DNA of 64,000 nucleotides from an uncultured Planctomycetia bacterium (lineage in GTDB: Bacteria; Omnitrophota; Gorgyraeia; Tantalellales; Tantalellaceae). The DNA is taken from assembly GCA_964527555.1 (NCBI GenBank), contig CAZGOG010000002.1:41698-105697 (forward strand), written 5' to 3'. Made by a program: the position numbers and the translations under genes. The notes below the pieces were generated by a model that was given only the letters and a program-made list of their open reading frames with translations, was not told the origin of the DNA and did not search any database. Of the stretch, positions 5,275 through 44,703 are shown in pieces (the stretch's first letter is position 1; every line of letters begins with the position of its first letter).

Positions 5275-6555
5275 CTAGCTTTTACCCATATTCTGAAGGA
5301 ATTCCTTGTTCGTCTTGGATTTACCCAGACGGTCCAGAAGCAGTTGCATCGCTTCCACAGAATCAAGATCGCTTAGAGCCTTGCGCATAAGCCATATTTT
5401 CTTGAGTTCGTCTTCTTCGACAAGCAGCTCTTCTTTTCGCGTATTCGAGCGCTTTATGTCTATCGCCGGATAGATCCTGCGCTGGAAAAGGTTCCTGTCA
5501 AGCTGGATCTCCATGTTGCCGGTACCCTTGAACTCTTCGAATATGACCTCGTCCATGCGGCTGCCGGTATCGACCAAAGCGGTGGCGATTATCGTGAGGC
5601 TCCCCCCCTCCTCCACGTTACGCGCTGAACCGAAGAAACGTTTGGGCTTATGAAGGGCGTTTGCGTCCACTCCGCCGGAAAGTATCTTGCCCGAATGCGG
5701 CACGACGGTATTATACGCACGCGCCAGGCGCGTTATCGAATCAAGCAGTATGACAACGTCGTATTTGTGTTCCACAAGCCGTTTTGCTTTTTTAAGCACC
5801 ATCTCGGCGACCTGGGTATGCCGCTGCGCCTGTTCATCAAAAGTCGAAGCCACCACTTCCGCCTTTACCGAACGCTGCATGTCGGTAACCTCTTCCGGGC
5901 GCTCATCGATAAGCAGTATTATGAGCTTGACCTCGGGATAGTTTGTCGTGATGCTGTTGGCGAACTTCTGAAGGAAGACCGTCTTGCCGCTATAGGGAGG
6001 CGCGACTATCATCCCCCTTTGCCCTTTACCCACGGGTGTAAGAAGATCCATCACGCGCATGGATATCTCCTTGGGGTCCGTCTCCAGGGCAAAACGTTCG
6101 TCAGGGTACAGCGGCGTCAGGTTCTCGAAAAGTATCTTGTTCTTCGTGACCTCCGGGTTCTCAAAGTTCACAGCCTCTACCTTTAAAAGGGCAAAATAGC
6201 GTTCACCCTCTTTCGGGGGACGGATCTGGCCGCTAACCGTATCACCCGTCTTAAGATTAAACCGGCGTATCTGCGAGGGTGAGACGTAGATGTCGTCCGG
6301 GCACGGCAGGTAACTGTAATCGGGACTTCTTAAAAACCCGAATCCGTCCTCCAGCACCTCGAGCACACCTTCCCCGTATGCCAGGCCGTCTTTCTCGATC
6401 TTCGCCTGCAGGATCTTAAAAATAAGATCGTGCTTCTTCATGCCGCTCATACCGTTGATCTTAAGCGTCTTGGCAAGCTCCGTAAGCTCGGCGATCTTCA
6501 TGTTCTTCAGTTTTACGATGTCTAGCTCTTTCTCTCTTTTTGCACGTTTTTCCAT
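5275..6555 (-). CDS. rho: Transcription termination factor Rho
   Basis: 426 aa. N-terminal [16 protein letters not shown] (Rho_N), RNA-binding cold-shock-like domain, RecA-type ATPase with Walker A (APPYSGKT). The start may be the internal Met at ~6501 rather than 6555 (the latter overlaps coaE by 34 nt). Confidence 0.9.
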
Positions 6556-9769: not shown

Positions 9770-10034
9770 GCGTTAATCGGAATAATAAATGGCCGGCCTT
9801 TTCGAGTAGCTTTAAAGGGAATGGGAATATGCATTTCTTTCTATGGCTATAAAATAAACATACAATCCGAGTATACTTTTGCGTTTTGTGTAAGGAAATA
9901 CTTTTGGCGAGTTTTATAATCCTCTTTATTATAATATTTTCTAATATTATGTCAAGCAAACTTTAAAGAAATAACACGAAACTCCATGGCCCCTTAAAAG
10001 CAGCTCTAAAAAGGCCCCTAAAAGAGGCGCATGA

Positions 10035-10400
10035 TTAGAAACGAAAAATCACAATCAAAAGCAGCGCAATAAGCACCGCTGAAACCACATAGAAATCACT
10101 GAAGTAGAAAAAATCGGCAATCTTGTCGATGAAGGTGTCCCTCGACCTCTTCGTGTCCATCACTTCAAGCCGCTCTTTGGGGCGCTTAGGCGTCTGGACG
10201 ACAGGCGCTTTATCCTTGCTGCTGATACGGGAATCTATTTCTGAGCGTATGGCGTCGATCTGATCCCGCCTGAAACGCAAAAGCTCTCCGCCGAGCTTGT
10301 ACGCTACGATCACTTTCCTCTCGACAAGGTCGATTATTTTCTCTTCACTGATCCCTAAATAGTCGGACAGCTCCTGTAAAGTAAGCAGCTTCTCGGGCAT
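10035..10400 (-). CDS. Excisionase-family (HTH_17-like) DNA-binding protein with C-terminal transmembrane anchor
   Basis: 121 aa. N-terminal LTLQELSDYLGISEEKIIDLVERKVIVAYKLGGELLRFRRDQIDAI resembles excisionase/MerR-superfamily HTH. C-terminal FYFSDFYVVSAVLIALLLIVIF is a hydrophobic helix. Family assignment from motif memory only. Confidence 0.55.
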   Translation of the reverse strand: MPEKLLTLQELSDYLGISEEKIIDLVERKVIVAYKLGGELLRFRRDQIDAIRSEIDSRISSKDKAPVVQTPKRPKERLEVMDTKRSRDTFIDKIADFFYFSDFYVVSAVLIALLLIVIFRF

Positions 10401-10401
10401 A

Positions 10402-10962
10402 TTACGCCTTTACTTTGCCGTCCGCCACCCACTGGTCCACCTTGGACCTTTCAAACATCCATTCGCCGCCGTTCCTGGTGCCCGGAAGCATGCCGTTATT
10501 GACCCACTCGTTTACCTTGTGTGATTCGACTTCCAGGTATTCAGCAAGCTGATTTGCCGTCATCCAGTCACCCCTGGATGCGGAACCCGCGGATGGGTTC
10601 ATACCCTTCATGCGCAGCTGCCCGTTTATAAAAGCACCTTCCGATATGGAAATCCTGGGCGTTTCGACATCACCGTTAAGTTTTGCGCTTGCATCCAGCT
10701 TCAAAGTTTTGGTGGCCTTTATGTTGCCGTTTACAACGCCTGCGATCGAGATGGTCTCGCCGGTTATATCCGCTTTTATGTCGGCTTTCTCCCCGATCAT
10801 GAGAACACCCTTGGCATCCAGCTTACCCTCGAATCTGCCGCTTATCCTCAAGTTTACAGGATCATCGAAACGCAAGGTACCCTGCATGGTGGCGTTTACG
10901 TCCAGCACCTTCTCTTCTGGCTTACTCTGTACTACTACTTCTTCAGGTTTCCGTTTTCTCAT
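10402..10962 (-). CDS. Bactofilin (DUF583 polymer-forming domain) fused to C-terminal excisionase-type HTH
   Basis: 186 aa. Residues ~25-125 (LRISGRFEGKLDAKGVLMIGEKADIKADITGETISIAGVVNGNIKA...ETPRISISEGAFINGQLRM) match the bactofilin beta-helical repeat pattern. C-terminal WMTANQLAEYLEVESHKVNEWVNNGMLPGTRNGGEWMFERSKVDQWV resembles the HTH of the downstream gene 10035..10400. Confidence 0.6.
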   Translation of the reverse strand: MRKRKPEEVVVQSKPEEKVLDVNATMQGTLRFDDPVNLRISGRFEGKLDAKGVLMIGEKADIKADITGETISIAGVVNGNIKATKTLKLDASAKLNGDVETPRISISEGAFINGQLRMKGMNPSAGSASRGDWMTANQLAEYLEVESHKVNEWVNNGMLPGTRNGGEWMFERSKVDQWVADGKVKA

Positions 10963-11005
10963 CGCGCCCTCCTTTTTCTCTTAAAAAGTTCATTTGTCTT
11001 TTCTA

Positions 11006-11665
11006 TCATCCCCATTTTACGCGTTCTACTCCCGCTAAAGACGAAATCTCAGAAACGATGTCTTTTTCATAAATACGCGGGACTAAAAGATCGAAAGCAA
11101 AATCTTCCTTAGTCCTGGTATCGTCCTTCTCGGACGAGACCCTTTTTATCCTGCCACCGCAAGACTCAATGGCATTCTTTATATCATCGGCGCTAGTACC
11201 CATATTGACGCTCATCCTGATGAGGAGTTTCTTGCCGCGCCGTTTGAGCGCCATCCGCTCTTCCAGCCGCGAAAGAATAAGGACTACAAGCACTACACCG
11301 GTGGCAATCCCGGCCGCTTCATACATACCGGCGCCCACAGCCAGCCCGATCGCGGAGACCGCCCATATACTCGCGGCGGTCGTCAGGCCCCTGACAGAGG
11401 CACCATACCTTATTATAGCACCTGCTCCCAAAAATCCAATACCTGTTACGACCCCGGCGGCTATCCTCGAAGGGTCGGCTTCACCTATATCCCCGTAACT
11501 GGCGGCGATCAGTATAGAAGTTATCATAAAAAGAGTCGACCCCACACAGACCAGTATATGAGTCCTGAGCCCCGCGGCGCAGCCGTGTATCTCGCGTTCC
11601 ATACCGATAATCGCGCTTAGAACCGCCGATATCACCAGTCTCAGAAAAATGATCGCACTTGGCAT
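11006..11665 (-). CDS. mgtC: MgtC/SapB-family membrane protein
   Basis: 219 aa. N-terminal multi-TM region with GMEREIHGCAAGLRTHILVCVGSTLFM (MgtC signature) plus a C-terminal ACT-like soluble domain. Confidence 0.8.
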   Translation of the reverse strand: MPSAIIFLRLVISAVLSAIIGMEREIHGCAAGLRTHILVCVGSTLFMITSILIAASYGDIGEADPSRIAAGVVTGIGFLGAGAIIRYGASVRGLTTAASIWAVSAIGLAVGAGMYEAAGIATGVVLVVLILSRLEERMALKRRGKKLLIRMSVNMGTSADDIKNAIESCGGRIKRVSSEKDDTRTKEDFAFDLLVPRIYEKDIVSEISSLAGVERVKWG

Positions 11666-11694
11666 ACCCTTCCTCCTTCTTTAACTTGCCCTTT

Positions 11695-12705
11695 CTAGAA
11701 CGAGCCTGCTTTAGCGTTTAAAAAAAGATCTGACTCCTCTCCGCCGGTGAAAAGTTTTTCGCCCAGTATCGCGATCATCGCCGCGTTATCAGTGCAGTAT
11801 TCTTTTTTGGGAAGATAAAGCTCTATACCTTCGCGTTTTTTAAGCGCCAGGAGTCTCGCTCTGAGAGCTCCGTTACTCGTGACTCCGCCTCCCACAGCAA
11901 GCCTTTTAACCTTCGCAAAACGCATGGCTCTTAAGATCTTCTCCTCGATCACGTCTATGACAGCCTGCTGGAAAGAAAAAGAGATCCTGTCCTTCTCTCT
12001 TTCGGTCTTTTCCGAATCCTTCCAGTAATACATGACAGCAGTCTTAAGCCCGCTGAAACTGAAATCAAGGTCCGTTTCATCCTTAAGAAGGGCCCTCGGG
12101 AAATCTATAACGCCTTCTCCGGTAAACCTGGAAGCCCTTTCCTCCACGATAGGCCCGCCCGGGTATCCCAGATCAAGCATCTTGGCTACTTTATCAAAAG
12201 CCTCGCCCACCGCGTCGTCTTTCGTCCTACCTATAATATCAAATTTTTTCAAAGAATGGCAGATATATATGCTGGTGTGCCCGCCGGAGACCACCACACC
12301 CACAAAAGGGAATTTCCCCTTCAACTCACCGAGAGCCTCTCCTCCAAGAAAACAGGATAGAATATGACCGTAGAGGTGGTTCACGCCGATTATGGGCACC
12401 CGCCTTGCAAAACTGATCGCCTTGGCAAAAGCTATGCCTACAAGGAGGGATCCAGGCAGGCCCGGACCCTCGGTAACCGCCACCAGGTTAATATCTTCCG
12501 TGCATACCTTCGCGTCCTTCAAAGCTTTTTCCATGACTGAAAAAATATATTCGGCATGGAACCGCGAGGCTATTTCGGGGACAACTCCGCCGTAGTCCGA
12601 ATGAAGATGAACGCTTGAAGATACTTCGCTGGAAAGCACCCTGCCGTCTTCCACCACGGCTACCGCTGTCTCGTCACAGGAAGTCTCAATACCAAGAGTT
12701 TTCAT
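11695..12705 (-). CDS. tsaD: tRNA N6-adenosine threonylcarbamoyltransferase
   Basis: 336 aa. MKTLGIETSCDETAVAVV and GVVPEIASRFH, metal-binding HxxH region. Kae1/YgjD family. Confidence 0.9.
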   Translation of the reverse strand: MKTLGIETSCDETAVAVVEDGRVLSSEVSSSVHLHSDYGGVVPEIASRFHAEYIFSVMEKALKDAKVCTEDINLVAVTEGPGLPGSLLVGIAFAKAISFARRVPIIGVNHLYGHILSCFLGGEALGELKGKFPFVGVVVSGGHTSIYICHSLKKFDIIGRTKDDAVGEAFDKVAKMLDLGYPGGPIVEERASRFTGEGVIDFPRALLKDETDLDFSFSGLKTAVMYYWKDSEKTEREKDRISFSFQQAVIDVIEEKILRAMRFAKVKRLAVGGGVTSNGALRARLLALKKREGIELYLPKKEYCTDNAAMIAILGEKLFTGGEESDLFLNAKAGSF

Positions 12706-21193: not shown

Positions 21194-22090
21194 TTAAACT
21201 TCTTCTTCCGTTTCATCCTTTTCCGTTTCAACCGGCTTCTCTTCTTCCTTGACGGATAGCGCCTCTTCGTTTATCTCGATAACAGTCTCTTTGCGAAGCC
21301 TGGTGAGTAGATCGTTGAAAAGCTGGCGCCTCTTTATGGCCCTTAGCTGCGATTTTATGTTTTCGTCCACCTCGTCTATCGGCCTTAACTGCGGCTGCCG
21401 CCGGTCAGTAAGTTTTATTATATGATACCCGAGTTTCGTCTTTACGACTCCGCTGATCTGGTCTATTTCAAGAGCCGAACAGGCGTTCTCGAATTCCGGC
21501 ATGAGCTGCCCTTTGGGAAAATACCCGATGTCCCCGGCTCTCTGGGCGGTGGGGTCTACTGATTTCGCTCTTGCCATATCCTCGAAACTCGCGCCTGCCT
21601 GGATCTCTTTAAGCACTTCATCGGCATTATCCTGTGACAAGAGGAGTATATGCGAGACCCTCATGATCTCGGGGGTCATGTATTTATCTTTGTTGCTTTC
21701 GTAAAACTCCACGATATCATCGTCGGTTATGACAACGGCATCATCCACCTCGCCCTTCAGAAACCTTGCGATGAGGATCTTTTTGCGGGCCTGTTCTATA
21801 ACCTCCTGGACTTCTTTCTCCTTATCGATATTTTTGCGGAGAGCCTCCTGGTAAAGGAGCGTGTCGTTTATGAGTTCCTGCAGGAACTCATCTTTCCTGT
21901 TCTTGACGATGTCCTGGTACTTTCCCGGGAGTTTTTCGATCATCCTGTTGAAATCCCGTATGGTGATCTTCACCTCTCCCACCGAAGCTATGACATCTTC
22001 CTTCTTCGGCGTTTTGGAACAGCCGAAAAGGCCCATCACCAGGAAAACCGCTAATAGAACGAAAATGGTGCTATTTTTGTTTTTTCTCAT
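21194..22090 (-). CDS. PpiC/parvulin-type peptidyl-prolyl isomerase lipoprotein (PrsA/SurA-like)
   Basis: 298 aa. Lipoprotein signal (LFGCSK), parvulin domain (MRVSHILL...GDIGYFPKGQLMPEFE...KLGYHIIKL). Second SurA-like paralog in tandem. Confidence 0.75.
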   Translation of the reverse strand: MRKNKNSTIFVLLAVFLVMGLFGCSKTPKKEDVIASVGEVKITIRDFNRMIEKLPGKYQDIVKNRKDEFLQELINDTLLYQEALRKNIDKEKEVQEVIEQARKKILIARFLKGEVDDAVVITDDDIVEFYESNKDKYMTPEIMRVSHILLLSQDNADEVLKEIQAGASFEDMARAKSVDPTAQRAGDIGYFPKGQLMPEFENACSALEIDQISGVVKTKLGYHIIKLTDRRQPQLRPIDEVDENIKSQLRAIKRRQLFNDLLTRLRKETVIEINEEALSVKEEEKPVETEKDETEEEV

Positions 22091-22150: not shown

Positions 22151-24055
22151 TCAAGAGTTTTCACTTCCCCTTAGTTTATCGATCTCCAGTTTAAGCAGAC
22201 GGCAATAGAGGTCAAAGCCTACCTGGTCTATGAACCCGCTCTGCTGGAAACCCAATATATTACCGGCACCCCTCATCTCAAGGTCCCTCATGGCGATCTT
22301 GAATCCCGAACCCAGCTCCTGGTATTTCTTTATCGCGCTTAAACGCTGCTGCACTTCATGGGTAAGGCTTGAGAAGTCCCGTACCACCAGATACGCGTAA
22401 GCCTTACGGTCAAACCTGCCGATCCTGCCCCTCAGCTGATAGAGATCCGCCAAACCGAACCGGTCCGCATCATTTATGATCATGGTGTTGGCGTTCGGGA
22501 TGTCTATCCCGGATTCGATGATCGTGGTGCATACCAGTACGTCCACTTCCGCCCTGATAAATTTAAGCATTGTCTTCTCGAGTGTCTTCGAACTCATCTG
22601 CCCGTGCGCCACCAGAAGACGCGCACTTGGCGCGAGCTTCTTGACTTTGGAGGCGATCCTTTCTATGGTCTCAACCCTGTTATGGACATAATACACCTGG
22701 CCGCCCCTGGCCAGTTCTTTCTCTATGGCGCCGGAGATCTCTTTTTCGTCATACTCCATAACTCTGGTATCGACAGGCATCCTTTCCAGGGGAGGAGTCT
22801 CGATCACCGATATATCCTTCCCCCCCATAAGCGCAAGGTACAGTGTCCTGGGTATGGGAGTGGCCGTGAGCGTGAGTATATCGACGTTCACGCGCATCCT
22901 TTTAAGCTTATCCTTGTGTTTTACGCCGAACCTCTGCTCTTCATCGATAATTAAGAGGCCCATATCCTTAAACTTCACGTCGCTGGAAAGCAGGCGATGC
23001 GTGCCGATAACTATATCGACTTTCCCCTCCTCCAGGTCCCTGAGTATCGTGTTCTGCTCTTTCTGCGTACGGAACCGGTTAAGCATCTGGATGTTTATGG
23101 GAAAATCCCTGAGGCGTCTGGTAAAGGTGTTGGTGTGCTGCTCCGCAAGGATCGTCGTCGGAACGAGTATGGCCACCTGTTTATTGTCGATGACCGCCTT
23201 GAACGCAGCGCGCAAGGCGACTTCAGTCTTGCCGTAGCCCACATCGCCCGAGAGAAGCCGGTCCATGGGGCGCGGCCTTTCCATGTCGCACTTAACGTCC
23301 TCCGTCGCTTTCAGCTGGTCGGGTGTCTCCTTATAGGGAAACGCCTCCTCGACCTCTTTCTGCCAGTCGCTATCCTTGGAGAAAACAAAACCGGGCGCGC
23401 TTTCCCTCTTCGCCTGCAGACTCAATAGATCCCGTGCCACCAGCGCGGCCCCCCTGGTGGCGTTTTTCTTGGCCGCTTCCCATCCCTTGCCTTTAAGGCT
23501 GCTTAAGCCGGGTAGCTTCCGGTGAAACGAGATGTACCTTTGCAGTTTGTGGAGGTCGCCGCTTTCAACATAAAGCTTATCCCCGCCTTTATATTCAAGA
23601 ACAAAATAATCCCCGAAGCTCCCTCCCCGGCGCATCCTCTGCATGCCGAGGTACTTGCCTATGCCGTAATCAAGGTGCACTACAAAGTCGCCCGGCTCTA
23701 TATCGACGAAGGAGTCTATCGGCTGCTCGCCCAACTCCACCCGGCCTGCGCGTTTTGACACCTTCGTGCGTCTTAATATGCCGAGCGGCAGTATTATGAC
23801 TCCTCTATGACTGGTGATCGTCTTGAAGGAAACTAGGTCTATGCTCTTTATCGACCGCACCACGCTTCCGGAGATATCTATACGGACCGGATACTCGAAA
23901 GTCACGGGATAGATTATAAGAGTCTCGCCCACCAGGGTATAATCCCCGCACGCTGAGATCCTACGGCACCGCGAATAGCCGTACCGCTCCAGCGTTTTAA
24001 GCGTCTCCTCCGCACTGGCTTTCTCGCCTGTATATAATTTGAGGGAATCAAACAT
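22151..24055 (-). CDS. mfd: Truncated transcription-repair coupling factor homologue (Mfd RID + translocase domains only)
   Basis: 634 aa. RNAP-interacting domain (DFVVHLDYGIGKYLGMQRM), SF2 helicase motifs (LLSGDVGYGKTEVALRAA, DEEQRFG, TLTATPIPRTL, TRG-like). Lacks the ~450-aa N-terminal UvrB-homology module and the C-terminal D7. Only 34 nt separate it from argS. Confidence 0.8.
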   Translation of the reverse strand: MFDSLKLYTGEKASAEETLKTLERYGYSRCRRISACGDYTLVGETLIIYPVTFEYPVRIDISGSVVRSIKSIDLVSFKTITSHRGVIILPLGILRRTKVSKRAGRVELGEQPIDSFVDIEPGDFVVHLDYGIGKYLGMQRMRRGGSFGDYFVLEYKGGDKLYVESGDLHKLQRYISFHRKLPGLSSLKGKGWEAAKKNATRGAALVARDLLSLQAKRESAPGFVFSKDSDWQKEVEEAFPYKETPDQLKATEDVKCDMERPRPMDRLLSGDVGYGKTEVALRAAFKAVIDNKQVAILVPTTILAEQHTNTFTRRLRDFPINIQMLNRFRTQKEQNTILRDLEEGKVDIVIGTHRLLSSDVKFKDMGLLIIDEEQRFGVKHKDKLKRMRVNVDILTLTATPIPRTLYLALMGGKDISVIETPPLERMPVDTRVMEYDEKEISGAIEKELARGGQVYYVHNRVETIERIASKVKKLAPSARLLVAHGQMSSKTLEKTMLKFIRAEVDVLVCTTIIESGIDIPNANTMIINDADRFGLADLYQLRGRIGRFDRKAYAYLVVRDFSSLTHEVQQRLSAIKKYQELGSGFKIAMRDLEMRGAGNILGFQQSGFIDQVGFDLYCRLLKLEIDKLRGSENS

Positions 24056-24088
24056 GGTCTATTCATCCGGAGAAAGAGCTCCGCCCTC

Positions 24089-25783
24089 TTACATCTTCTC
24101 AGGCAGAGTTATATTCAAAAGACCTAACCCGTTCGCCAGGACCGTACGAACGCATTCGACAAGAAATAGCCTCGCCTTTGTCAGCGCAATATCGTCCGAG
24201 ACTACCCTGCATTCGGTATAAAAAGAGTGAAAGAGGCGCGCCAGATCGTTGAGATAGACTATCAGCCTGTTAGGCTCAAGCGCGTCTGCGCTTGCCTTCA
24301 CCGCAAAAGGAAACTCCCCGAGTTTACGCATAAGGGTTCTTTCCTCTTTTGTTTTCAAGAGGTCCAGCCGTTTCTTCCGAAAAAGGAGCTTAAGCGCCTT
24401 TTTGCGGCTGAACTTCTTTATGCTGCAGATCCTTGCATGAGCGTACTGGATGTAATAGACGGGGTTGTCCGTAGATTCTTTCTTGGCAAGATCTATGTCA
24501 AAATCCAGGTGGCTGTCAAGCCTTCTGGAAAGGAAAAAGAACCGTGTGACATCCTTGCCTATTTCATCGATAAGTTCTCTTAAGCTTATAAATTCCCCCT
24601 TACGCGTGGACATGGAAAGGGACTCACCCCCTCGCATGAGGGTGACGAGCTGCACTATTAATATTTCAAGGCTTCCGGCATCGTGACCCAGCGCCTGGAC
24701 AGCGGCTTTCATCCTGCCGATATAACCGTGATGGTCCGGGCCCAGGAGGTCTATGAGTTTCCAGTGATGACGGCGGTACTTGTCAAGATGATAAGCTATA
24801 TCGGGCGCCAGGTACGTATAAGAGCCGTCACTTTTTCTGACGACCCTGTCTTTATCGTCACCGAAACGGGTGGAAGCAAACCATTTTGCCCCGCCGTCTT
24901 CATAGATATAGCCGCCTTTATCGAGCACTCCAAGAGCCTGCTCCACTTCTTTGCGCCCCTCTATATCCGCCTGGCTGGTCCAGGTATCAAATTTGACTCC
25001 GAAATCATCCAGGTCTTTCGTTATGAGATGCATCATGTATTTGACAGCATAATCCCGGAAAAAGTTCCCTTCTTTTTCTGGTTTTTCAAGAAGCGCGCTG
25101 CCCCTCTTCTCTTTTATCTCTCTTGCGATATCGGTAATATACTCGCCCATGTACCCGTCCGGCGGCATCTCCTCTTCTCGCCCGCAGAGATTACGGTACC
25201 GCACCTCGACGGACTTACCGAGAAGCATGATCTGGCGGCCCACATCATTAAGGTAATACTCACAGGTGACTTTATAGCCGTCAAAACGCAGTATACGCGC
25301 CAGGGCGTCGCCTATGGCGGCCTGGCGGCCATGCGCGATAGTAAGGGGTCCCGTGGGGTTGGCGCTTACGAATTCGAGGTTTATGTGCCTTGAGCGGCCG
25401 TCATCTGACCGGCCGAAATCGTCCTTTTCTTCTTCGATAGCTAAAAGAAGCTTCTTGTAATACTCGTCGGAAAACCGGAAATTTATGAACCCGCCTTTAA
25501 CCTCTATATCGCCTATCAAAGCGGATAGATGACTCTTCTCGAGCTCCTCCCGAAGGATAGCTGTGATCCTGGAGGCAACTTCAGCCGGGGCTTTGCGCAC
25601 CAGCGAGGCCAGACGCATCGCCACATTACTGGTCAGATCCCCGTGTTTGGCATCACGGGTAAGCTCCAGAAACACCCCTATATCTTCCGGGAAAGGCGCA
25701 TCGGGCAGGTTTTCGCAGAAATACTTTTTTGAGGATTTTAAGAGGGCTTCCGTTATTTTTTTTGAGACGTCTTTTCCAAGCAT
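24089..25783 (-). CDS. argS: Arginine--tRNA ligase
   Basis: 564 aa. N-terminal Arg_tRNA_synt_N, HIGH-like HGDLTSNVAM region, DALR anticodon-binding domain at the C-terminus. Confidence 0.9.
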   Translation of the reverse strand: MLGKDVSKKITEALLKSSKKYFCENLPDAPFPEDIGVFLELTRDAKHGDLTSNVAMRLASLVRKAPAEVASRITAILREELEKSHLSALIGDIEVKGGFINFRFSDEYYKKLLLAIEEEKDDFGRSDDGRSRHINLEFVSANPTGPLTIAHGRQAAIGDALARILRFDGYKVTCEYYLNDVGRQIMLLGKSVEVRYRNLCGREEEMPPDGYMGEYITDIAREIKEKRGSALLEKPEKEGNFFRDYAVKYMMHLITKDLDDFGVKFDTWTSQADIEGRKEVEQALGVLDKGGYIYEDGGAKWFASTRFGDDKDRVVRKSDGSYTYLAPDIAYHLDKYRRHHWKLIDLLGPDHHGYIGRMKAAVQALGHDAGSLEILIVQLVTLMRGGESLSMSTRKGEFISLRELIDEIGKDVTRFFFLSRRLDSHLDFDIDLAKKESTDNPVYYIQYAHARICSIKKFSRKKALKLLFRKKRLDLLKTKEERTLMRKLGEFPFAVKASADALEPNRLIVYLNDLARLFHSFYTECRVVSDDIALTKARLFLVECVRTVLANGLGLLNITLPEKM

Positions 25784-31208: not shown

Positions 31209-32360
31209 CTAATTAGGTTTGGGTGGGTTCCAGCTTATGATATCGACATCTTGTTGAAGCCCCGGCGCATAAATCTCAGGATCTTTATATGCATATTTAA
31301 CGACAGTCGTCACATTCCAGAAGGTTATATCCCTTTCAGCTATCATACATCCCTCTATATCAATAGTAGCTCCCGCTGTCCCGGTAGTAAGGTCCCTCCT
31401 GGCATGCACGATAGCTCCTTCTGTTGTGAGATTGCCGTGAACCGTAATATCACCGTTCGTCCCTTTTGCATAAATGATGTTTATAATGCCGCTTTTTATG
31501 GTCTGTATCAGGCTTCCACTTATTTTAATATCGTCTGCGATAAGAGAGCCGTTAAGCACACATGTGCCGCTTATAGTGACGTTACCGTCTACGTAAGCAT
31601 ACCCGCTGGAAGGTGAAATGCTTCCGGTAAAAGTCTGGTTACTGCTGTAGTAGTCACCGGCATCAATCGCTTTTTGTTTCCACTCGGCCAAATCCCCCTG
31701 AGTGATCCAATCAACACCCACAAGGGGAAGAAACGGCGCGCCTTCTGTAACTGTGGCGGCGTCATTATTCACGCCATTGATCCATATGAAAGCATCTGCA
31801 CTATCGGATTGGTTGTGTTTTGAGCCTTCCAGCACCACACCAACAGCCGCGACTTCTCCGTTTACGCGGACGATTCCGTTATTCAAGGACTTGAGCTCTA
31901 CGTCGCTGTTAGAGTGTATGTCCCCTGTCACCTCTACCAATGAAGCGCTGCCCGTGGCACGAAGTTTAAGGCTGTTGTATGCCGTATACATCTTGTTTAA
32001 CGGTGAGTCTACAGCACCGCTGATCTCAGCCGTTACCGTCCTTGAAACCGGCCCCACAGTCCCCACTGAAGTCAAAAGGATCCTCGAACCCACCTGAGAG
32101 TACGTCACGACGTAGCCACCCGTATCCATAGTCTCTGAAACGACGGTGCTTCCGCTTAAACCGTTGGCCCTGATCTCAGCCAGCGCGTGGTTTATCCCCG
32201 CTTCAGCCATGTTCCTTGCCTGCTCCATGGTCTTTGCCCGGCCTATTAGCTCCATGTCCTGTTTTATGATATCGACGAAAAATATCGTAGTTATGGACAT
32301 TAAGAGCACGAAACCCAGTACCACGATAAGCACCATGCCTTTTTTGTTCCCGATATTCAT
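31209..32360 (-). CDS. PilX-like type IV pilus assembly/minor-pilin-associated protein with beta-helix-like C-terminal region
   Basis: ORF 31209..32381 trimmed to MNIGNKKGMVLIVVLGFVLLMS. N-terminus matches the PilX_N pattern (G-[MV]-x-L-[IV]-x-x-L hydrophobic helix then MEQARNMAEAGINHALAEI). C-terminal half has repeated G/N/T-rich beta-strand segments (DITVHGNLTTEGAIVHARRDLTTGTAGATIDIEG). Confidence 0.65.
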   Translation of the reverse strand: MNIGNKKGMVLIVVLGFVLLMSITTIFFVDIIKQDMELIGRAKTMEQARNMAEAGINHALAEIRANGLSGSTVVSETMDTGGYVVTYSQVGSRILLTSVGTVGPVSRTVTAEISGAVDSPLNKMYTAYNSLKLRATGSASLVEVTGDIHSNSDVELKSLNNGIVRVNGEVAAVGVVLEGSKHNQSDSADAFIWINGVNNDAATVTEGAPFLPLVGVDWITQGDLAEWKQKAIDAGDYYSSNQTFTGSISPSSGYAYVDGNVTISGTCVLNGSLIADDIKISGSLIQTIKSGIINIIYAKGTNGDITVHGNLTTEGAIVHARRDLTTGTAGATIDIEGCMIAERDITFWNVTTVVKYAYKDPEIYAPGLQQDVDIISWNPPKPN

Positions 32361-32393
32361 CCGGCTAATCTCGCTTTTCATATCACACCGCCT

Positions 32394-34679
32394 CTATTTG
32401 CCCGTATTCCTGGGCTCGACCTCGATCGTATTCTCTTTATGGAGTAACCTGCCGTGAAAATCCATACTGACGCCGATACCGATCGTCAAAGCTTTAATAA
32501 GATCCTCGCCGTCGATTGTGACTCTCACCTGTCCGTAATCGTCCTTCTTGGCGATGTCGCCCGTGATCTGGCATACTGTTTCATCGCCGGGCCAGTTTAC
32601 TTCAACATCGTCTATCCAGAGTGAAGTATACCCCGCAATGTAGGGCTCGCCTGCACTAGCCGGGAACTCATACACATTCATCATAGTTACCTGGCTATTA
32701 ATATAATTCTCATAGCTCAAGGTCGAAGAATCAACCCTCCAGTAAAGGGTAGTAGCCAGTTCCCCCTTGAACTGAAAATACCGGCCTGAACCTATTCCCA
32801 GGCTGCTGGGATTCGTAGTGCTGCCGGTTATAGAGTCCCAGTCTGTCGCCCCTGTCATGAATCTGTCACTGGAAGAACGCGCCTTCATGCGCACTTCGGT
32901 GCCCGAAGGACTGTCTTCAGACCACTTTATCTGGTTATACGAGGGGCTTGCTAACGCCGTATCGTATATCTGAGATTCCACGCTGCCTGATTTCTGGGCA
33001 ACGTCAACTTCTGTAACGGCATAGATCATGTTTGTGGTGCCGTCATAAAGAGACCATACCGGCGTCCCCGAAGCGGACGGAAGATCTCCCGTCGTCAGGT
33101 AATATGAATGATCCATGGTCGCACCGCCCTCCCAGTACCTGACATCGTCATCACCCGGATTAAAGGACCATCCTGAAGGCCAGATTAAAAACGGATCATC
33201 CAGCTGCGGCACATAGAATGTTATAAGGTAATCCGCCTCGTCCCCCGCTGAATCCTCCAAAGCCAGCGGGAAGCAGACCCATTCGCTCCAGACTTGACCG
33301 CCGCTGGGGATATAGGCATAAGTCACGGTATCGGTGGAATCGCCGTCACCATCCATATCATAAGCGTCCTGGAAATAAAGCCTCTGGTGACGGTGATAGT
33401 CTTCTACAGGTAACCCCGACGTAGACTGGTTCGCAAGGCCGACATACTCATCTGCGCTTTTATCTCTTCTTGTTATATACGCAGCCTCTATTTTAAAGGG
33501 ATTATCCTCGGGCGCGGTAAACTTGCACCTTAAAAGATAGCCCCTCACGGGATCTGCCGTGGTCGTGCCGGAATTGTCTATCTTATCATGGTGTAAAACC
33601 GTACGGATTGTTATGGGATAAGCCGGAAGGTTCCCGTCATCGCCGTCTATCTCAGTATCCTCGGTCTCAGATGCGGCTGACCAGACTATATCCTCGTCTC
33701 CACCCACGCGGTCCGAGGGAAGTTCCAGCTTCATACGCATCTCTTCCCCATAAATAAAAACGTTATCCGGGCTTGCGCCCGAAAAAGCGGAATCTCTCAC
33801 AAGATCGTAAGAGTCGGTAAACTCGAGATAGTCGCCTGCGCCCGCAGCGTCATATTCCAGGAAATTACTGTTTCTCCATTCGTTGTCATAAACTCTGGTA
33901 ATACCGGCGCCGCTTGAATCTATCGAACCAGCCGGGGCAAAAGAGGAGTTGTAATACTCCGCTTCCCGGTAACTGCCCGAAGGCATTATCCTGATATTGT
34001 CTATGCCGAAAGCGTAACCGGTCGAATCGGGATTGAGGTCCTCGGCAGTAAAGCGTATGTCATGACTTCCAGCGTCAAGCGTTGTGTACCCGAAGACGAC
34101 GTTACTCACTTTAACGGGATCGCTGCTTTCATCATAAAAATCCACCAAACCGGCCAGCTGTGAGATCTCAAGATAATCCAGGTTTTCCCTTATGAGATCC
34201 GAATATATGTCGGCGGTGATGTCGCCGGAAAGAACACTTTCAAGCTGAGCGTACCTTTCATCCTCGGTAAGCGTACTGTCCCATGAATCGATAACGCTTC
34301 TTCTGAGATGCTTTTTACCGTCTTCCTCGACTATGTGGTATATGATGGTCTTATCCCAAGCGATCTTGCCATCGGTAATAGTTAAAAAACCGTTAGTATC
34401 AACATCGGCTGACGGCAGGCTCATCGCGGTATATGTGACTTCGCCTTCCGGATAAAACGTCATATAAGTGGCGCTTGAAAGACGCACTTCGTTCCTTATC
34501 GTCTCAAGAGCTTTTAAAAGGTCTATCCTGAGAAGCGTGTTACTCCTTTCCCCCGTCCATACTTTCTGGGCAAACGTCCACGTCGAGATCATAGCCGCCA
34601 CCACCAGAACAGCTATAATTATCATGATCAGCACTTCCGTTAAGGTAAACCCTCTTTTATCCCGGAGCATCCTTCTCAT
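32394..34679 (-). CDS. Giant (761 aa) prepilin-type protein: class III signal peptide + large acidic extracellular domain
   Basis: N-terminus MRRMLRDKRG|FTLTEVLIMIIIAVLVVAAMIS is a canonical prepilin peptidase motif (G/FTLxE plus hydrophobic helix). The remainder (~730 aa) is D/E/S/T/Y-rich with no motif I recognise. Sits between the PilX-like and PilV-like genes. Confidence 0.75.
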   Translation of the reverse strand: MRRMLRDKRGFTLTEVLIMIIIAVLVVAAMISTWTFAQKVWTGERSNTLLRIDLLKALETIRNEVRLSSATYMTFYPEGEVTYTAMSLPSADVDTNGFLTITDGKIAWDKTIIYHIVEEDGKKHLRRSVIDSWDSTLTEDERYAQLESVLSGDITADIYSDLIRENLDYLEISQLAGLVDFYDESSDPVKVSNVVFGYTTLDAGSHDIRFTAEDLNPDSTGYAFGIDNIRIMPSGSYREAEYYNSSFAPAGSIDSSGAGITRVYDNEWRNSNFLEYDAAGAGDYLEFTDSYDLVRDSAFSGASPDNVFIYGEEMRMKLELPSDRVGGDEDIVWSAASETEDTEIDGDDGNLPAYPITIRTVLHHDKIDNSGTTTADPVRGYLLRCKFTAPEDNPFKIEAAYITRRDKSADEYVGLANQSTSGLPVEDYHRHQRLYFQDAYDMDGDGDSTDTVTYAYIPSGGQVWSEWVCFPLALEDSAGDEADYLITFYVPQLDDPFLIWPSGWSFNPGDDDVRYWEGGATMDHSYYLTTGDLPSASGTPVWSLYDGTTNMIYAVTEVDVAQKSGSVESQIYDTALASPSYNQIKWSEDSPSGTEVRMKARSSSDRFMTGATDWDSITGSTTNPSSLGIGSGRYFQFKGELATTLYWRVDSSTLSYENYINSQVTMMNVYEFPASAGEPYIAGYTSLWIDDVEVNWPGDETVCQITGDIAKKDDYGQVRVTIDGEDLIKALTIGIGVSMDFHGRLLHKENTIEVEPRNTGK

Positions 34680-37402: not shown

Positions 37403-39166
37403 CTACTTCTTCTTCCTGAAATCCAGCCAGGGCGCGTATTCCCTCTTGGGCTGCACCGCTTCGGTGTTTCCTACAGGAACTTCTACCTGTTTCTGGGTGG
37501 TTTTCAGCTTCCCCGTCATAAGCACGGGGGCTGTTTCGGTTTCCTCGGCGCTTTCTTTCTGCGTTATGTATTTATCAAAGTGCGGCTGGGTCTCGGAATC
37601 AGCGATGGAATCCATGGCGTCTTTCACCAGGTGCACCGTGACGAAAAATACGATCTCAGTTCTTCGGATTTCTTCGGATTCGTATTTGAAAAGACTTCCC
37701 AGAACCGGTATGCCACCCAAAAGGTCGCCCAGTATCGGGAGTTTATTATCCTCTGTCACCAGCTCTTTCCGTATAAGCCCCCCCAGGAAAATCGTGTCTC
37801 CGTCTCTCACCCTTATGATCGTGTTAGCCTCCCTGGAATTAAACGTAAGGGCCACTGTTCCCTGCTGGGCCGCTCCGGCAAGCGTGAGCACGCTAAAGCC
37901 TTCGTTATTAGAGACTTCCGGCAGGAGATTGACGGAGATGTCCCCTTCTTCGTTGACATGGGGGATCACCACGAGCTTCACGCCGACTTCCCTGGCATCC
38001 TCTATATCTTCAAATTGAACGGTAACGGTCGTGGAGGTATCTGTACTCTGCAGCGCCTCCTGCAGCATTATTTTCTGGATTACCTTTATAGTGGCTCTTT
38101 GATTATTCAATGTCGTTATACGGGGACTTGAAAGTATCTCGGAATCGCCCCTCTGGTCTATAAGCGCCAGAGTCGCGGTAAAGGTACTAAAGTCCAGGTA
38201 ACCATACGTGAACAGATCCGTGCCGGCGAGAGCCTGGGCAACCGCGGGGATACCTGTATCCGTAATCCAGGGAAAAGTTGGAGCAAATCCTCTTCCTCCT
38301 GTCGAAGGATAATACTTCTCATCCGGCGCACCGTTTAAAAACGGCAAGGTCCCGTCGTTTTTAAAGGGAAAGGTGATCGGCTTTTTAGCCCCGGCAGCCG
38401 TTATTACCGCGTTCCAATCCACGCCGAAACGTTCGTCCTCGTTTAAGAGGATCTCGACAACTTTCGCATCAAGTATGATCTGGGGGGTCTTCTTGTCGAT
38501 CTTGCTTATCATCGTTTTGATGTCGCTTATGCGCGCGGGTATCGCCGTTATCACTATGGAATTAACGCTTGAGATATATGTGGCTTTTTCGCCCTGCCTG
38601 GGGTTAAGGATTGAGTTGATCGCCGTCATCAGCTGGTTGATGCTTTCTTCCTTCTGCTCTACAAGCACCTCTTCATTGCCTTCTTCCGTTTTGGTCAGCT
38701 CAATATCACGTATGAGGTGATTTAAGGGTATGACCTCTGTCACGGGCTCTTCCGCGTGAAGCTGTCCTTTGGGTATGACCCTTATGATGTCGCCCTCGCG
38801 TGAATAGACGTATCCGTAGTTTCTTGTCACGATGTCAAGTGCCACTTCCCAGGGTTTGTTCCTTAGACGCATGGTGACCAGGCCCTCGACTCCGGGAGAC
38901 GGGATTATATCGACCCCGCTTACCTCGGAAAGGTAATGAAGGACTGTCTTTATATCCACATCCTTGAAATTGACAGTCACGTTCCCGGCTTCGGCCAAAG
39001 GCTGGCCTATATCCTCTTTGACCGGGGATGTTTGGGCAGCACCCGCAGGTGAAACATTCACCTGGGCATATGAATCCACTATTAGCAGCGAATTCATAAA
39101 TAAAATCGCAACAACTGGCGCAAGAACTTTTACCCATGCACCAGAAGGCCACGCCCGTAAGGGCAT
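37403..39166 (-). CDS. pilQ: Type IV pilus secretin PilQ
   Basis: Secretin N-domains (VTVNFKDVDIKTVLHYLSEVSGVDII) and a C-terminal secretin domain (GDTIFLGGLIRKELVTEDNKLPILGDLLGGIPVLGSLFKYESEEIRRTEIVFFVTVHLV). The long ORF starts at 39271 inside repeat copy B. The plausible start is an ATG at 39166 (MPLRAWPSGAWVKVLAPVVAILF... signal-like), also inside the repeat. Start uncertain. Confidence 0.85.
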   Translation of the reverse strand: MPLRAWPSGAWVKVLAPVVAILFMNSLLIVDSYAQVNVSPAGAAQTSPVKEDIGQPLAEAGNVTVNFKDVDIKTVLHYLSEVSGVDIIPSPGVEGLVTMRLRNKPWEVALDIVTRNYGYVYSREGDIIRVIPKGQLHAEEPVTEVIPLNHLIRDIELTKTEEGNEEVLVEQKEESINQLMTAINSILNPRQGEKATYISSVNSIVITAIPARISDIKTMISKIDKKTPQIILDAKVVEILLNEDERFGVDWNAVITAAGAKKPITFPFKNDGTLPFLNGAPDEKYYPSTGGRGFAPTFPWITDTGIPAVAQALAGTDLFTYGYLDFSTFTATLALIDQRGDSEILSSPRITTLNNQRATIKVIQKIMLQEALQSTDTSTTVTVQFEDIEDAREVGVKLVVIPHVNEEGDISVNLLPEVSNNEGFSVLTLAGAAQQGTVALTFNSREANTIIRVRDGDTIFLGGLIRKELVTEDNKLPILGDLLGGIPVLGSLFKYESEEIRRTEIVFFVTVHLVKDAMDSIADSETQPHFDKYITQKESAEETETAPVLMTGKLKTTQKQVEVPVGNTEAVQPKREYAPWLDFRKKK

Positions 39167-39250
39167 GGATGAATGGCCTTCGGTGCAGGATTCCGCTTGA
39201 CGGAACCCTGAAACTGTGGATGCCATGGGCGTTAGCCCATGGAGCTTCAC
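39128..39250 (-). repeat. 123-bp structured interspersed repeat, copy B (reverse-complement orientation)
   Basis: The reverse complement of 39128..39250 aligns end-to-end with copy A, with only a few transitions and a 1-nt indel. Lies between pilP and pilQ and overlaps the pilQ 5' end. Confidence 0.9.
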
Positions 39251-39310
39251 TATTCGACTAAATTTTTTCATGTTCCCCCCCCATTACGAATTTAAAAACC
39301 GTACTTCTTT

Positions 39311-39691
39311 CTATTCCTCATAAAGTTTTATTTCATGCTCGTCTTCATCTATTTTTATTTTCACAACATTGGCATCTATCGACTCGACTGTAAGTACGCC
39401 GATACTGTCGCCTTCGGTCATAAACTCGCCGTTAATGATGGCGCTCCTTTTTCCGGCGGGATCGATAACAATCCCCTGAAGCACGACATCGTCTACGGTA
39501 AGCACTCCCCTGGCACCGCCCCGCGTTCCATCCTGCGGGACGCCGATTAAAGGCACGAAGGGGTCCCTGCGTCCAAGCGATTTATATTCGAATGCAGAAG
39601 CCTCATCCGGCAGCAAGCCCGCAATAGCCATAACGAGACTCACCGCCAGCAGAAACGTATATGCTCCGCTATTTCTTTTCATCATCTCCAA
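39311..39691 (-). CDS. pilP: Type IV pilus assembly protein PilP (pilotin-like lipoprotein)
   Basis: 126 aa. Signal peptide, RRDPFVPL motif, short beta domain. Follows pilO in a pilMNOPQ operon. Confidence 0.75.
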   Translation of the reverse strand: MEMMKRNSGAYTFLLAVSLVMAIAGLLPDEASAFEYKSLGRRDPFVPLIGVPQDGTRGGARGVLTVDDVVLQGIVIDPAGKRSAIINGEFMTEGDSIGVLTVESIDANVVKIKIDEDEHEIKLYEE

Positions 39692-40280
39692 CCGCCACGT
39701 AGGCTTTTAAGACTATTTTCACGTTATGAGACCTGGGATATTTGCTGTCGTATTGCACCGAGAGGTCCTGGATCTCAACGAACCTTTCCCCCTGCTCGAG
39801 TTTGTTGATAAAATAACCCAGCTGATGATATCCGCTCTTCGCGGTTATAACTATAGGCATTTCGCGAAAATACCTGGCGGTCTCCTCGTCTAACCCCTTG
39901 GTGGAAAACTCCTGGGGGGTGACGCTTAGTATCTTCACGTTCGATTCCTTGGCCATGGCAGCCAGACCTTCCAAAAATTTGGGTATTTCTTTTTCGACTG
40001 GAAGCTGTTTGGCATACCGGGTCTGTTCTTCCCGTAGAACGTTTAATCTCTCTGTCATCTCATCCAGACGTTTTTCCCGGCTTTCAACAAGATTTATCCT
40101 GTCTTTAAGATCCTTGACCATCCTGGAAACCTCAGAAAGACTGTTAAACGTCGGCAGGATGAGAAATGTAAGGTAAAGCACCACGATGATAACCGCGCCG
40201 CCCACAGTGACATACAGTTTCTTCTGCTCGTCCTCGAAAAACTCTTTTATCTTGTCTTGCTGCGTATTAAAATCGATCAT
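39669..40280 (-). CDS. pilO: Type IV pilus assembly protein PilO
   Basis: 203 aa. Single N-terminal TM, coiled coil, C-terminal PilO-type domain. Operon position between pilN and pilP. Confidence 0.75.
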   Translation of the reverse strand: MIDFNTQQDKIKEFFEDEQKKLYVTVGGAVIIVVLYLTFLILPTFNSLSEVSRMVKDLKDRINLVESREKRLDEMTERLNVLREEQTRYAKQLPVEKEIPKFLEGLAAMAKESNVKILSVTPQEFSTKGLDEETARYFREMPIVITAKSGYHQLGYFINKLEQGERFVEIQDLSVQYDSKYPRSHNVKIVLKAYVAVGDDEKK

Positions 40281-40945
40281 TTCTTCAGAAGGTCCTCTCC
40301 GATTTTCTCGTCGCTTTTAAACCCTATAGGCCCGAAACGGCAGTTAAGGTTGAACATCATCACTTCTTCCTCGCTGATCTTAAGGTTCCGCATGTTTTTA
40401 AGTTCGATCTCCTCGAAATAGCTGGAGAACTCCATGTTCTTTTTGAGACTGTTGATAAACCTGGCGACTGTAGCCGTCGCTTCTTCGCTCTTGCCAAGAG
40501 CATACCCGTTAAGATTAAGCCAGACAGGGAGATCGCTTATCACTATCTTTTTGTCTTTCTCATCCCGGAAACTCAGCTCAAAGTTTGAGAGCCAAATGTT
40601 CGGTATTATCGACTGGTTGAGACCGCTGAGGAGCATGGACCAGTCCAGATCGGGTTTGGCGATCTTTTTTACCGCGGCTATCCTTCTTTCAAGGTTGTTT
40701 ATTTCTCTGGCAAGGCGTTCCGTTCTTTCACGCTGCGGTTTCATCTGGTTCCATTTCTCTTCCAGCACCCCGTACTCTTTCCTGTTACTGCCGACCACCA
40801 GCAGCATAAGAACATGCACGGCGATCAGGACTGCTATTACGCCTAAAGCCGCCGGTAACGCCGGCAGTGTCGGCAGCTTGGGCATCTGTATCTGCCTTCT
40901 CTTCTTTCTCCTCAGATCCTTGGGCAGCAAATTAAGCTCTATCAT
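40277..40945 (-). CDS. pilN: Type IV pilus assembly protein PilN
   Basis: ORF 40277..40984 trimmed to MIELNLLPKDLRRKK... (conserved PilN INLLP N-terminus). Single TM, coiled coil. Confidence 0.8.
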   Translation of the reverse strand: MIELNLLPKDLRRKKRRQIQMPKLPTLPALPAALGVIAVLIAVHVLMLLVVGSNRKEYGVLEEKWNQMKPQRERTERLAREINNLERRIAAVKKIAKPDLDWSMLLSGLNQSIIPNIWLSNFELSFRDEKDKKIVISDLPVWLNLNGYALGKSEEATATVARFINSLKKNMEFSSYFEEIELKNMRNLKISEEEVMMFNLNCRFGPIGFKSDEKIGEDLLKK

Positions 40946-40961
40946 GATAAAATATTTTAGT

Positions 40962-41984
40962 TTACTTGATCCCTCTAAGCGCAAGTCCTATCCCGACAGC
41001 AAGCTGGCATGAAACCGGTTTTATCTTTTCGGCTGAAATGTTCTCGGATATCTTTAGACCTTTAAGCGGATCCCATTTCTTTACTTCAGTGGCGAGTCTT
41101 TCACCCAGGTGATCAAGCACCCCCTCCTGGCGGACCATCCCGCCGGAACAATAAATGTCGCTGATTCCCTTATTGTACCTGTTTTCAAAATATCCGAAAG
41201 ACAGTTGTACCTCCTTGATAAGATCATCAAGGATAGATGCGGCAGCCTGTTTTACAGCCTCTTTATTCCCGCCTTCATGGCCTAAAATGTACTCGTTTGC
41301 CTTTTCTATCGGAATAGACATATTCCGGCAGATGGCCTTGATGACATCCTTACCCCCAATCTGCACCTGCCTCATAAAGCAAGGCATCTCGCCGATCGAT
41401 ATCAATATATCGGTCTCGGAATGCCCGAGGTCCAAAAGGACATTACCCTTATCCTCGGCAAAAGTATTGGATTCAAGGAAGACATTGAACATCGCAAAAG
41501 AAGCGATATCCATTATGTTCACTATGATATCCATGCCCTCGAACATTTTTACCAGGTGTGCGATAGGCTCGCGTTTTGCGGCGGCCAAAAGGACCTTCAT
41601 GCGCCCCGCCTCTTCAGCATCGCCCAAAATAATAGAGTCGAGAACGACCTCTTTTATGCTGAAAGGAATGTACTTCTCAGCTTCAAAGGCAAGGGCGTTA
41701 GCCAGCTGTTCTTTGGTCATTTTGGGAAGGTCTATGAACCGCACGATCACGTCAGGCCCGGATATGGAGAGGTTGATTTCTTCCGGGTGAAAACCGATTT
41801 CTTTAAGGGCTTCTTCTATAAAACGCTGTGTTTCATAGCTTTTGGCATCGGGGGGGATATTTTTTATGCTAAAGGCAGAAAGCGTTTTACCATCAGAACT
41901 TTTCTCGAGGGAAACGGCCTTTATGGAATAACTTCCAATATCCAAGCCGACTGATTTTTCTGATGCACTTCCGATTTTTACCAT
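40962..41984 (-). CDS. pilM: Type IV pilus assembly protein PilM (actin-like ATPase fold)
   Basis: 340 aa. VGLDIGSYSIKAV (actin/FtsA-like phosphate-1 motif), PilM length, heads the pilMNOPQ operon. Confidence 0.85.
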   Translation of the reverse strand: MVKIGSASEKSVGLDIGSYSIKAVSLEKSSDGKTLSAFSIKNIPPDAKSYETQRFIEEALKEIGFHPEEINLSISGPDVIVRFIDLPKMTKEQLANALAFEAEKYIPFSIKEVVLDSIILGDAEEAGRMKVLLAAAKREPIAHLVKMFEGMDIIVNIMDIASFAMFNVFLESNTFAEDKGNVLLDLGHSETDILISIGEMPCFMRQVQIGGKDVIKAICRNMSIPIEKANEYILGHEGGNKEAVKQAAASILDDLIKEVQLSFGYFENRYNKGISDIYCSGGMVRQEGVLDHLGERLATEVKKWDPLKGLKISENISAEKIKPVSCQLAVGIGLALRGIK

Positions 41985-42107
41985 ATATTAAGAGTTAAAA
42001 AGTTAGAATTTATATAGAGATTATCTAATATATTTATCCAAAGACTATCATACCAACCTGCCATTGTCAAGCTGGAGGTATATATAATCTATACTCTAAG
42101 TAATCCT

Positions 42108-43976: not shown

Positions 43977-43977
43977 A

Positions 43978-44100
43978 GTGAAGCTCCATGGGCTAACGCC
44001 CATGGCATCCACAGTTTCAGTTTTTCCGTCAAGCGGAACCCTGTACCGAAGGCCATTCATCCACGCCCATAAGGGCGTGGCCTTCTGGTGTATGGGCAAA
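43978..44100 (+). repeat. 123-bp structured interspersed repeat, copy C
   Basis: Same orientation as copy A with ~10 substitutions, mostly C>T transitions that convert G-C pairs into G-U wobbles in the nested hairpins. Lies between pilA1 3' end and the TMTC-like gene start. Confidence 0.9.
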
Positions 44101-44156
44101 TACTATGTGCAAGAGCGGGGTTTATCAAAATACCATGTTCTGGACAGCTGGACCAA

Positions 44157-44495
44157 TCAGGGTAGTTTATGCCGGTCACCGTCTTCGTTCGGACACTTTA
44201 CGATTATACTGGGGGTGCCGATAATGTAATTGGCTCCGTCAGAGGGACAGGTAGGTGTTGACTTAATATAGTCCGGGACAAGGTCACTCATCGTGGGATT
44301 AGTGTCATTATCAATGTAAAAGATCGCTTTAGCGGCTTCTATCTGCCTTAGATTCGCGATGCATCCCCTGTTCTGAGCTTCCCTGCGGGCTCTGACTATG
44401 TTAGGAATGGCAATGGCCGCAAGCAGGCCTATTATCCCTATGATTATCATCATCTCGACAAGTGTAAAACCTTTTTTCCCCAATGTTTTCTCCAT
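44157..44495 (-). CDS. pilA: Type IV major pilin paralog 1
   Basis: ORF 44157..44531 trimmed to MEKTLGKKG|FTLVEMMIIIGIIGLLAAIAIPN (class III signal peptide, start choice uncertain). C-terminal D-region with two Cys pairs (CIANL...TCPSDG...CPNEDGDRHKLP). Confidence 0.8.
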   Translation of the reverse strand: MEKTLGKKGFTLVEMMIIIGIIGLLAAIAIPNIVRARREAQNRGCIANLRQIEAAKAIFYIDNDTNPTMSDLVPDYIKSTPTCPSDGANYIIGTPSIIVKCPNEDGDRHKLP

Positions 44496-44674: not shown

Positions 44675-44703
44675 CTAGATCTCACGCTTGCTGGAACGAA
44701 CCT

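Follow-up and report, generated by a model that had tools for sequence, protein, structure and literature searches.

A natural short form of Mfd in Omnitrophota that keeps D2 and lacks D1a, D1b, D3 and D7

Whether all Mfd proteins are autoinhibited through the D2:D7 clamp, and what the domains D1, D3 and D7 contribute, is under debate (PMC13453472, PMC7385628). A gene on the minus strand (22151..24055) of a 64,000-nucleotide stretch of DNA from an uncultured bacterium (contig CAZGOG010000002.1; the whole stretch is referred to below as the window) raises the question of which parts of Mfd a bacterium can do without, and whether the remainder could still engage UvrA. The open reading frame (ORF) codes for 634 aa, with an ATG start and a TGA stop, and a first-pass annotation made from the letters alone had read it as an Mfd homologue shortened at both ends. 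This is confirmed by the mfd equivalog model TIGR00580, by alignment to E. coli Mfd and by fold matches: the protein is a real Mfd. It consists of D2, a linker, D4 (the RNA-polymerase-interacting domain, RID), a relay helix, D5 and D6 with the TRG motif, and is without D1a, D1b, D3 and D7. We refer to it as the short Mfd.

Pfam recognizes four domains in the short Mfd, UvrB_inter, CarD_TRCF_RID, DEAD and Helicase_C, and gave no match there to the TRCF/D7 domain (PF03461). The first of these, at residues 5–90 (23786..24043; this and all following coordinates of the gene and its neighbours are on the minus strand), is a D2-like domain homologous to domain 2 of UvrB and to Mfd D2 (UvrB_inter, E 5.9e-12). 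Residues 4–90 align with residues 127–213 of E. coli Mfd (reference sequence from MG1655), which we take to be D2, a D2 profile hidden Markov model (HMM) matches residues 10–91 (E 2.5e-13), and a phmmer search against the PDB pairs the N-terminus with the D2 crystal chain 4dfc_A. The first-pass annotation was therefore mistaken in having the protein begin just before the RID, which D2 precedes. In place of D1b and D3, a disordered basic linker spans residues 94–117 (23705..23776; predicted local distance difference test (pLDDT) below 50 in an AlphaFold2 (AF2) model); it carries a conserved LRRxKxKK-like stretch and its net charge is positive in all homologues sampled. The RID itself lies at residues 120–175 (23531..23698; CarD_TRCF_RID, PF02559, E 2.7e-15) and matches the RID chains 6yhz_A and 3mlq_E by phmmer, and the relay helix at residues 190–219 (23399..23488), modelled by AF2 as a single long helix from 191 to 219, aligns to E. 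coli residues 548–577.

The motor is complete. D5, the first RecA-like translocase domain (residues 245–404; 22844..23323; DEAD, E 3.5e-25), carries the Walker A motif GDVGYGKT and motif II DEEQ, and D6, the second (residues 445–548; 22412..22723; Helicase_C, E 1.3e-24), carries motif VI QLRGRIGR. The TRG translocation motif and hook helices follow at residues 566–632 (22160..22360), as defined by alignment to E. coli Mfd, in which R571, R595 and Q605 correspond to R929, R953 and Q963, residues with a superfamily 2 (SF2)/TRG role in the Mfd and RecG literature. Invariant in 74 homologues are G270–T277 (including K276), D371–E373, Q540, R544, R547, R571, R595 and Q605. Residues 113–634 align without internal gaps to E. 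coli Mfd 471–993 at 50% identity, and the short Mfd ends at the equivalent of residue 993, at the D6/D7 boundary, which we presume to lie at approximately 990–1000. The AF2 model has a mean pLDDT of 76, with D2 at 80–90 and the RID, relay helix and motor confident, and the folds that it matches best are those of Mfd, from crystals and from cryo-EM. Several statements of the first-pass annotation thus stand: the autoinhibitory D7 is absent, the protein stops right after the translocase/TRG region, and the RNA polymerase-binding and translocase parts are intact, with every motif for catalysis and for polymerase binding preserved. The claim that the UvrA-recruitment module is missing holds only in part. 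No complete UvrB-homology module (BHM; D1a-D2-D1b) is present, and HMMs for D1a and D1b gave no match to the protein with positive controls, but D2 is retained.

The short Mfd is not confined to this contig. The best 120 homologues, on contigs of up to 746 kb, are 539–647 aa long and 60–100% identical, and every named one is from Omnitrophota or Omnitrophica; exact copies of the 634-aa protein were seen on 7 contigs, the longest of 380 kb, which come from four sources. A second set of 120 homologues, seeded with a divergent short form (P0121), measures 615–653 aa and bears Omnitrophota names save for one 'Elusimicrobia'. Overall we analysed 251 distinct short forms of 600–660 aa, nearly all with an Omnitrophota label, and an MFxSxK N-terminus is common to them. 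When 66 genome loci were compared, the gene order proA-nadD-rsfS-argS-mfd-ppiC-surA-pdxA-rsmA was found in the ~45 that are from Omnitrophota, and stop-to-stop frames at mfd in these loci reach only 627–692 codons. Among the best 150 of 1.84 billion cluster representatives (50% clustering), two are short and 148 are long forms of 975–1332 aa. Neighbour-joining trees of the motor core (510 columns), which exclude the domains in question, set the short forms against the 148 long representatives, and since the short forms make up one exclusive clade, the trees suggest a single origin for the domain loss. We conclude that the short Mfd is natural and fixed across an Omnitrophota lineage and is not an assembly artefact. 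The literature searched gave no description of short Mfd forms or of Omnitrophota Mfd, and the databases name them merely 'transcription-repair coupling factor'; the short Mfd adds a new domain architecture to a well-known family.

Two side observations concern this distribution. Short mfd genes occur under 'uncultured Planctomycetia bacterium' labels in many 'binchicken' metagenome-assembled genomes (MAGs; loci L002, L003, L005, L012, L016, L025, L027, L028, L031, L035, L036, L045, L056, L064 and L065), most of which are syntenic to the contig limits, L065 having only argS-mfd and L045 only the downstream genes; the NCBI labels of these records seem to be erroneous or out of date. The divergent short form P0121 (locus L071) lies among addAB-like genes, rluA, clpB and the dnaK operon, a context that offers no functional clue.

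D2 is the domain of Mfd that physically contacts UvrA (PMC3025350, PMC7385628, PMC13453472). In E. coli the D2 triple mutation R165A/R181A/F185A abolishes UvrA binding (PMC3025350), and two of these residues, R165 and R181, make up the D2:D7 clamp as well (PMC3025350, PMC13453472). Comparison of D2 between 147 diverse long forms and the 251 short forms (E. coli numbering) showed that R181 is arginine in all 147 long and in 249 of the short forms. R165 is arginine in 144 of the long forms, and position 185 is F or W in 116 of them; in the short forms it is aromatic in 15. Position 200 is never Q in the short forms; one subgroup has G there, the other F or Y. The fold positions G149, Y150, G160, G166, P173, P179, D196 and P213, conserved in the long forms, are kept in the short ones, where Y150, G166, P179 and R181 show little or no variation and an acidic residue at position 183 is nearly invariant. 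New invariants have appeared as well: F176 (249/251) and H206 (237/251), neither of which is conserved in the long forms.

Within the short forms, two subgroups can be told apart. In subgroup B (120 sequences) R165 and D170 persist; subgroup A (131 sequences, the window protein included) has V, T or K at 165, I or V at 170 and the sequence TFEYP beside R181. The residues at 165 and 170 covary, 116 short forms having R165 as well as D170, 124 neither, and only 11 one without the other. The short-form families compared were P0001–P0120 on one side and P0121 with P0395–P0513 on the other. D2 has a mean pairwise identity of 0.53, comparable to that of the relay helix. By these sequence patterns D2 is under purifying selection, and its surface is remodelled, with a clade-wide loss of F185 and Q200 and a loss of R165 and D170 in one subgroup.

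Taken together, we judge it probable that the gene is a functional Mfd orthologue, naturally minimized and fixed in Omnitrophota, which would displace RNA polymerase without a clamp. The RID would dock on the beta subunit of a stalled RNA polymerase, and the D5/D6 motor would translocate on the upstream duplex DNA, pushing the polymerase forward or off, as in canonical Mfd. A D2:D7 autoinhibitory clamp is impossible because D7 and the D1a/D1b/D3 scaffold are absent. The motor should thus be constitutively de-repressed by analogy with E. coli Mfd delta-D7 or delta-BHM or with wild-type Thermus Mfd: delta-D7 is de-repressed, with constitutive UvrA binding and strand-specific repair still in place (PMC3025350), delta-BHM displaces RNA polymerase faster and is without transcription-coupled repair (PMC3025350), and wild-type Thermus Mfd is not autoinhibited (PMC13453472). 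D2 would then be a flexibly tethered, permanently exposed docking domain. Because D2 is the sole accessory domain kept, and its only known role outside the clamp is UvrA docking, we lean somewhat towards retained UvrA recruitment, in which D2 would still contact UvrA through a re-shaped and probably weaker interface. One might speculate that this weakened interface takes the place of conformational masking by D7 as the means against UvrA sequestration. The assertion of the first-pass annotation that such a protein could not hand off to UvrA is not implied by the architecture, D2 being retained and conserved across the clade.

Several observations weigh against a clamp-less Mfd that still couples to UvrA and is fixed in Omnitrophota. 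Only one of the three UvrA-binding residues is kept in the window protein (V42 at R165, R58 at R181, S62 at F185), which further has I47 at D170 and F77 at Q200; D170 and Q200 are conserved in 145 and 146 of the 147 long forms, respectively, and replaced in the subgroup of the window protein. It is possible, from these substitutions of two of the three contact residues in that subgroup, that UvrA coupling is weakened or lost. The AF2 model is uninformative on the docking of D2 onto the motor, and the delta-BHM mutant removed D1a, D2 and D1b together, so that D2 alone was not isolated (PMC3025350). No uvr gene (uvrA, uvrB or uvrC) lies within ~84 kb around mfd on ENA contig k141_1090046, which contains the window. 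Finally, Candidatus Omnitrophica is also the label of P0181 (HIE43247.1), a 1112-aa long form with D7 whose contig measures 3.8 kb. In the trees this protein is not the sister group of the short clade, and it is either from a basal lineage that kept the long form or from a mis-binned contig. Because this long form carries an Omnitrophica label, 'phylum-wide' may be an overstatement for the short Mfd.

The D2 replacements (R165 to V, T or K; F185 to S, A or D; D170 and Q200) would also fit a different reading, one that we consider possible rather than probable: an RNA polymerase-release factor uncoupled from nucleotide excision repair, whose D2 no longer binds UvrA and has instead taken on a different partner or an intramolecular function. 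This would entail that Omnitrophota have no canonical Mfd-dependent transcription-coupled repair. It is favoured by the loss of UvrA binding in the E. coli mutant at the three contact residues (PMC3025350), by the new conserved patch of TFEYP beside R181 plus H206, by a UvrB_inter score of 46 bits in the window protein as against ~85 bits in long forms, and by the absence of D1a and D1b. On the other hand, D2 is known for no roles other than UvrA binding and the D7 clamp, and its presence in all 251 short forms, which have no D7, is most simply explained by UvrA binding. The near invariance of R181 and of the acidic residue at 183, and the retention of R165 and D170 in subgroup B, likewise speak against uncoupling. 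So does the co-occurrence of uvrA, uvrB, uvrC and mfd, each listed once for two Omnitrophota genomes from different orders in the KEGG orthologue (KO) tables of Seymour et al. (PMC10066038). A broader rewiring, in which an exposed D2 with a new surface binds a partner other than UvrA across the phylum, or binds UvrA in a weak, unmasked mode, strikes us as rather doubtful; if true, Omnitrophota would either be without canonical Mfd–UvrA coupled repair or have a minimal adaptor made of D2 only.

A dedicated termination factor had also been proposed for this gene. A rho gene with Rho_N, Rho_RNA_bind and ATP-synt_ab (ATPase) domains by Pfam is present in the window at 5275..6555 (minus strand), and with this general terminator available, Mfd need not serve as a substitute for one. 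A role for Mfd as a stand-in for a missing Rho was rejected on the same ground, rho being also listed once for each of the two published Omnitrophota genomes in the same tables. The rho gene of the window is complete, lies ~16 kb from mfd and adjoins coaE and polA.

The two-component arrangement raised in the first-pass annotation, with D1a/D1b/D3 and/or D7 encoded elsewhere as separate polypeptides that assemble with the short Mfd, is very unlikely. Profile HMMs for D1a, D1b, D3 and D7 were built from 247 long forms and run on six-frame ORFs at a threshold of E≤1; they recovered all long-form control loci, and found no stand-alone D1a, D1b, D3 or D7 in the window or in the ~45 Omnitrophota loci; inspection covered ~84 kb of this genome and ±10 kb in related ones. 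The D2 profile matched all of the Omnitrophota loci scanned as well as the window protein. The missing domains were also not found by tblastn in the window and the related loci, and neither they nor uvrA, uvrB or uvrC were found in the 66 related loci with ±10 kb flanks by tblastn, HMMs and Pfam. The sole short form that appeared to bear a D7 (L057), considered as an evolutionary intermediate with a short N-terminus and D7, is an assembly chimera: in a window-by-window comparison, residues 1 to ~385 match a short form (P0277) and those from ~390 onward a Dehalococcoidales long form (P0275), each with 100% identity. It comes from the public contig PLLL01000083.1 ('Dehalococcoidia bacterium fen_1078', 10001–12389), in which the chimeric join falls inside mfd; the upstream genes proA-nadD-rsfS-argS are of the Omnitrophota type, and a run of Ns follows the junction. 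No genuine D7-bearing short form was seen among the homologues examined.

That the protein is not an Mfd at all, but a RecG-like or other SF2 helicase with RID- and D2-like domains, is still less probable. RecG models do reach 411 bits, the motor and TRG motif being common to both families, but this is far under their cut-off of 718, and the mfd equivalog TIGR00580 passes with 847 bits against a cut-off of 800, a score that is far beyond chance. The RID is present, no RecG wedge domain was found by Pfam, and the motor core groups inside the Mfd trees. A full UvrB helicase, with beta-hairpin and UVR domain, is likewise not indicated: the model NF003673 (cut-off 743 bits) matches only the domain-2 segment, at 43 bits. 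NF007966, which models full-length Mfd of the E. coli type, failed, with 628 bits against 1329.

The immediate flanks of the gene are tightly packed. Upstream, the conserved neighbour argS (24089..25783; TIGR00456, 450 bits) has its stop ending at 24089, leaving a spacer of 33 nt (24056..24088) with an in-frame TAG at 24059–24061, two codons 5' of the mfd ATG. The spacer offers no space for an N-terminal extension and no other frame can add domains; the earlier statement that the flanks leave no room was right, although the 34 nt that it gave should be 33. Downstream, the conserved gene of a PpiC/PrsA-like lipoprotein (21194..22090; NCBIfam peptidylprolyl isomerase matches and synteny) starts at 22090, 60 nt from mfd, and sits where the coding sequence of D7 would have to be. 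A pseudogene, or a frameshift, misassembly or truncated call hiding a full-length mfd, has next to no probability, being ruled out by the in-frame stops and packed neighbours that bound the ORF, by the invariance of every catalytic motif, by the recurrence of the identical protein on 7 contigs and by the equal length and shared N-terminus of the 251 homologues.

As for the remainder of the window (1–64000), all long ORFs run on the minus strand, and the GC skew stays below zero over the whole length; scans of the window detected no tRNA genes and no Rfam families. A large type IV pilus cluster (37403–53007, minus strand) encodes PilQ, PilO, PilM and a 663-aa membrane and tetratricopeptide repeat protein. 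It includes two tandem pilin-like genes (44157–44531 and 44704–45099) with a common C-terminal CPxDG...CPNEDGD[RK]HKLP motif, followed by PilC, two tandem PilB paralogues, a PilT-like ATPase and a HAMP-GGDEF protein. At 42–46 kb of the window, GC falls to 0.44–0.45 and the AT skew changes sign. Two adjacent ORFs of 390 and 761 aa (31209–34679, minus strand) have no Pfam or NCBIfam match.

A large natural clade that has shed four accessory domains and kept D2 provides a minimal Mfd ready-made by nature, from which one can learn if D2 is enough by itself for hand-off to UvrA and how cells escape UvrA sequestration without masking, and which defines the parts that are truly core to RNA polymerase displacement; a compact protein of 634 aa is possibly also easier for structural study. 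Automatic annotation as a transcription-repair coupling factor conceals that, for this lineage, the repair-coupling half of the name is only putative.

Compared with canonical Mfd/TRCF (E. coli, 1148 aa; PDB 2EYQ and 6X26), the RID, relay helix, D5/D6, TRG and D2 are common and collinear, whereas the short form is without D1a, D1b, D3 and D7, ~515 residues, and has R165, D170, F185 and Q200 of D2 replaced. RecG shares the SF2 motor and TRG motif and is of similar size (~690 aa), but has an N-terminal wedge domain and neither RID nor D2, and its models stay under cut-off. Closer likenesses are found among the engineered E. coli truncations of Manelyte et al. 2010 (PMC3025350), delta-D7 having no autoinhibitory domain and keeping D2, and delta-BHM having lost D1a and D1b, as in the short Mfd; both are de-repressed and proficient in RNA polymerase displacement (PMC3025350). 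In contrast to either, the short Mfd combines both deletions, loses D3 as well and keeps a diverged D2. Thermus thermophilus Mfd (978 aa; PDB 6M6A; PMC13453472) retains the UvrB-homology module and D7, parts that are physically absent in the short Mfd, yet with its open clamp it is reported to be naturally and constitutively de-repressed, and is a precedent for autoinhibition being dispensable in some lineages.

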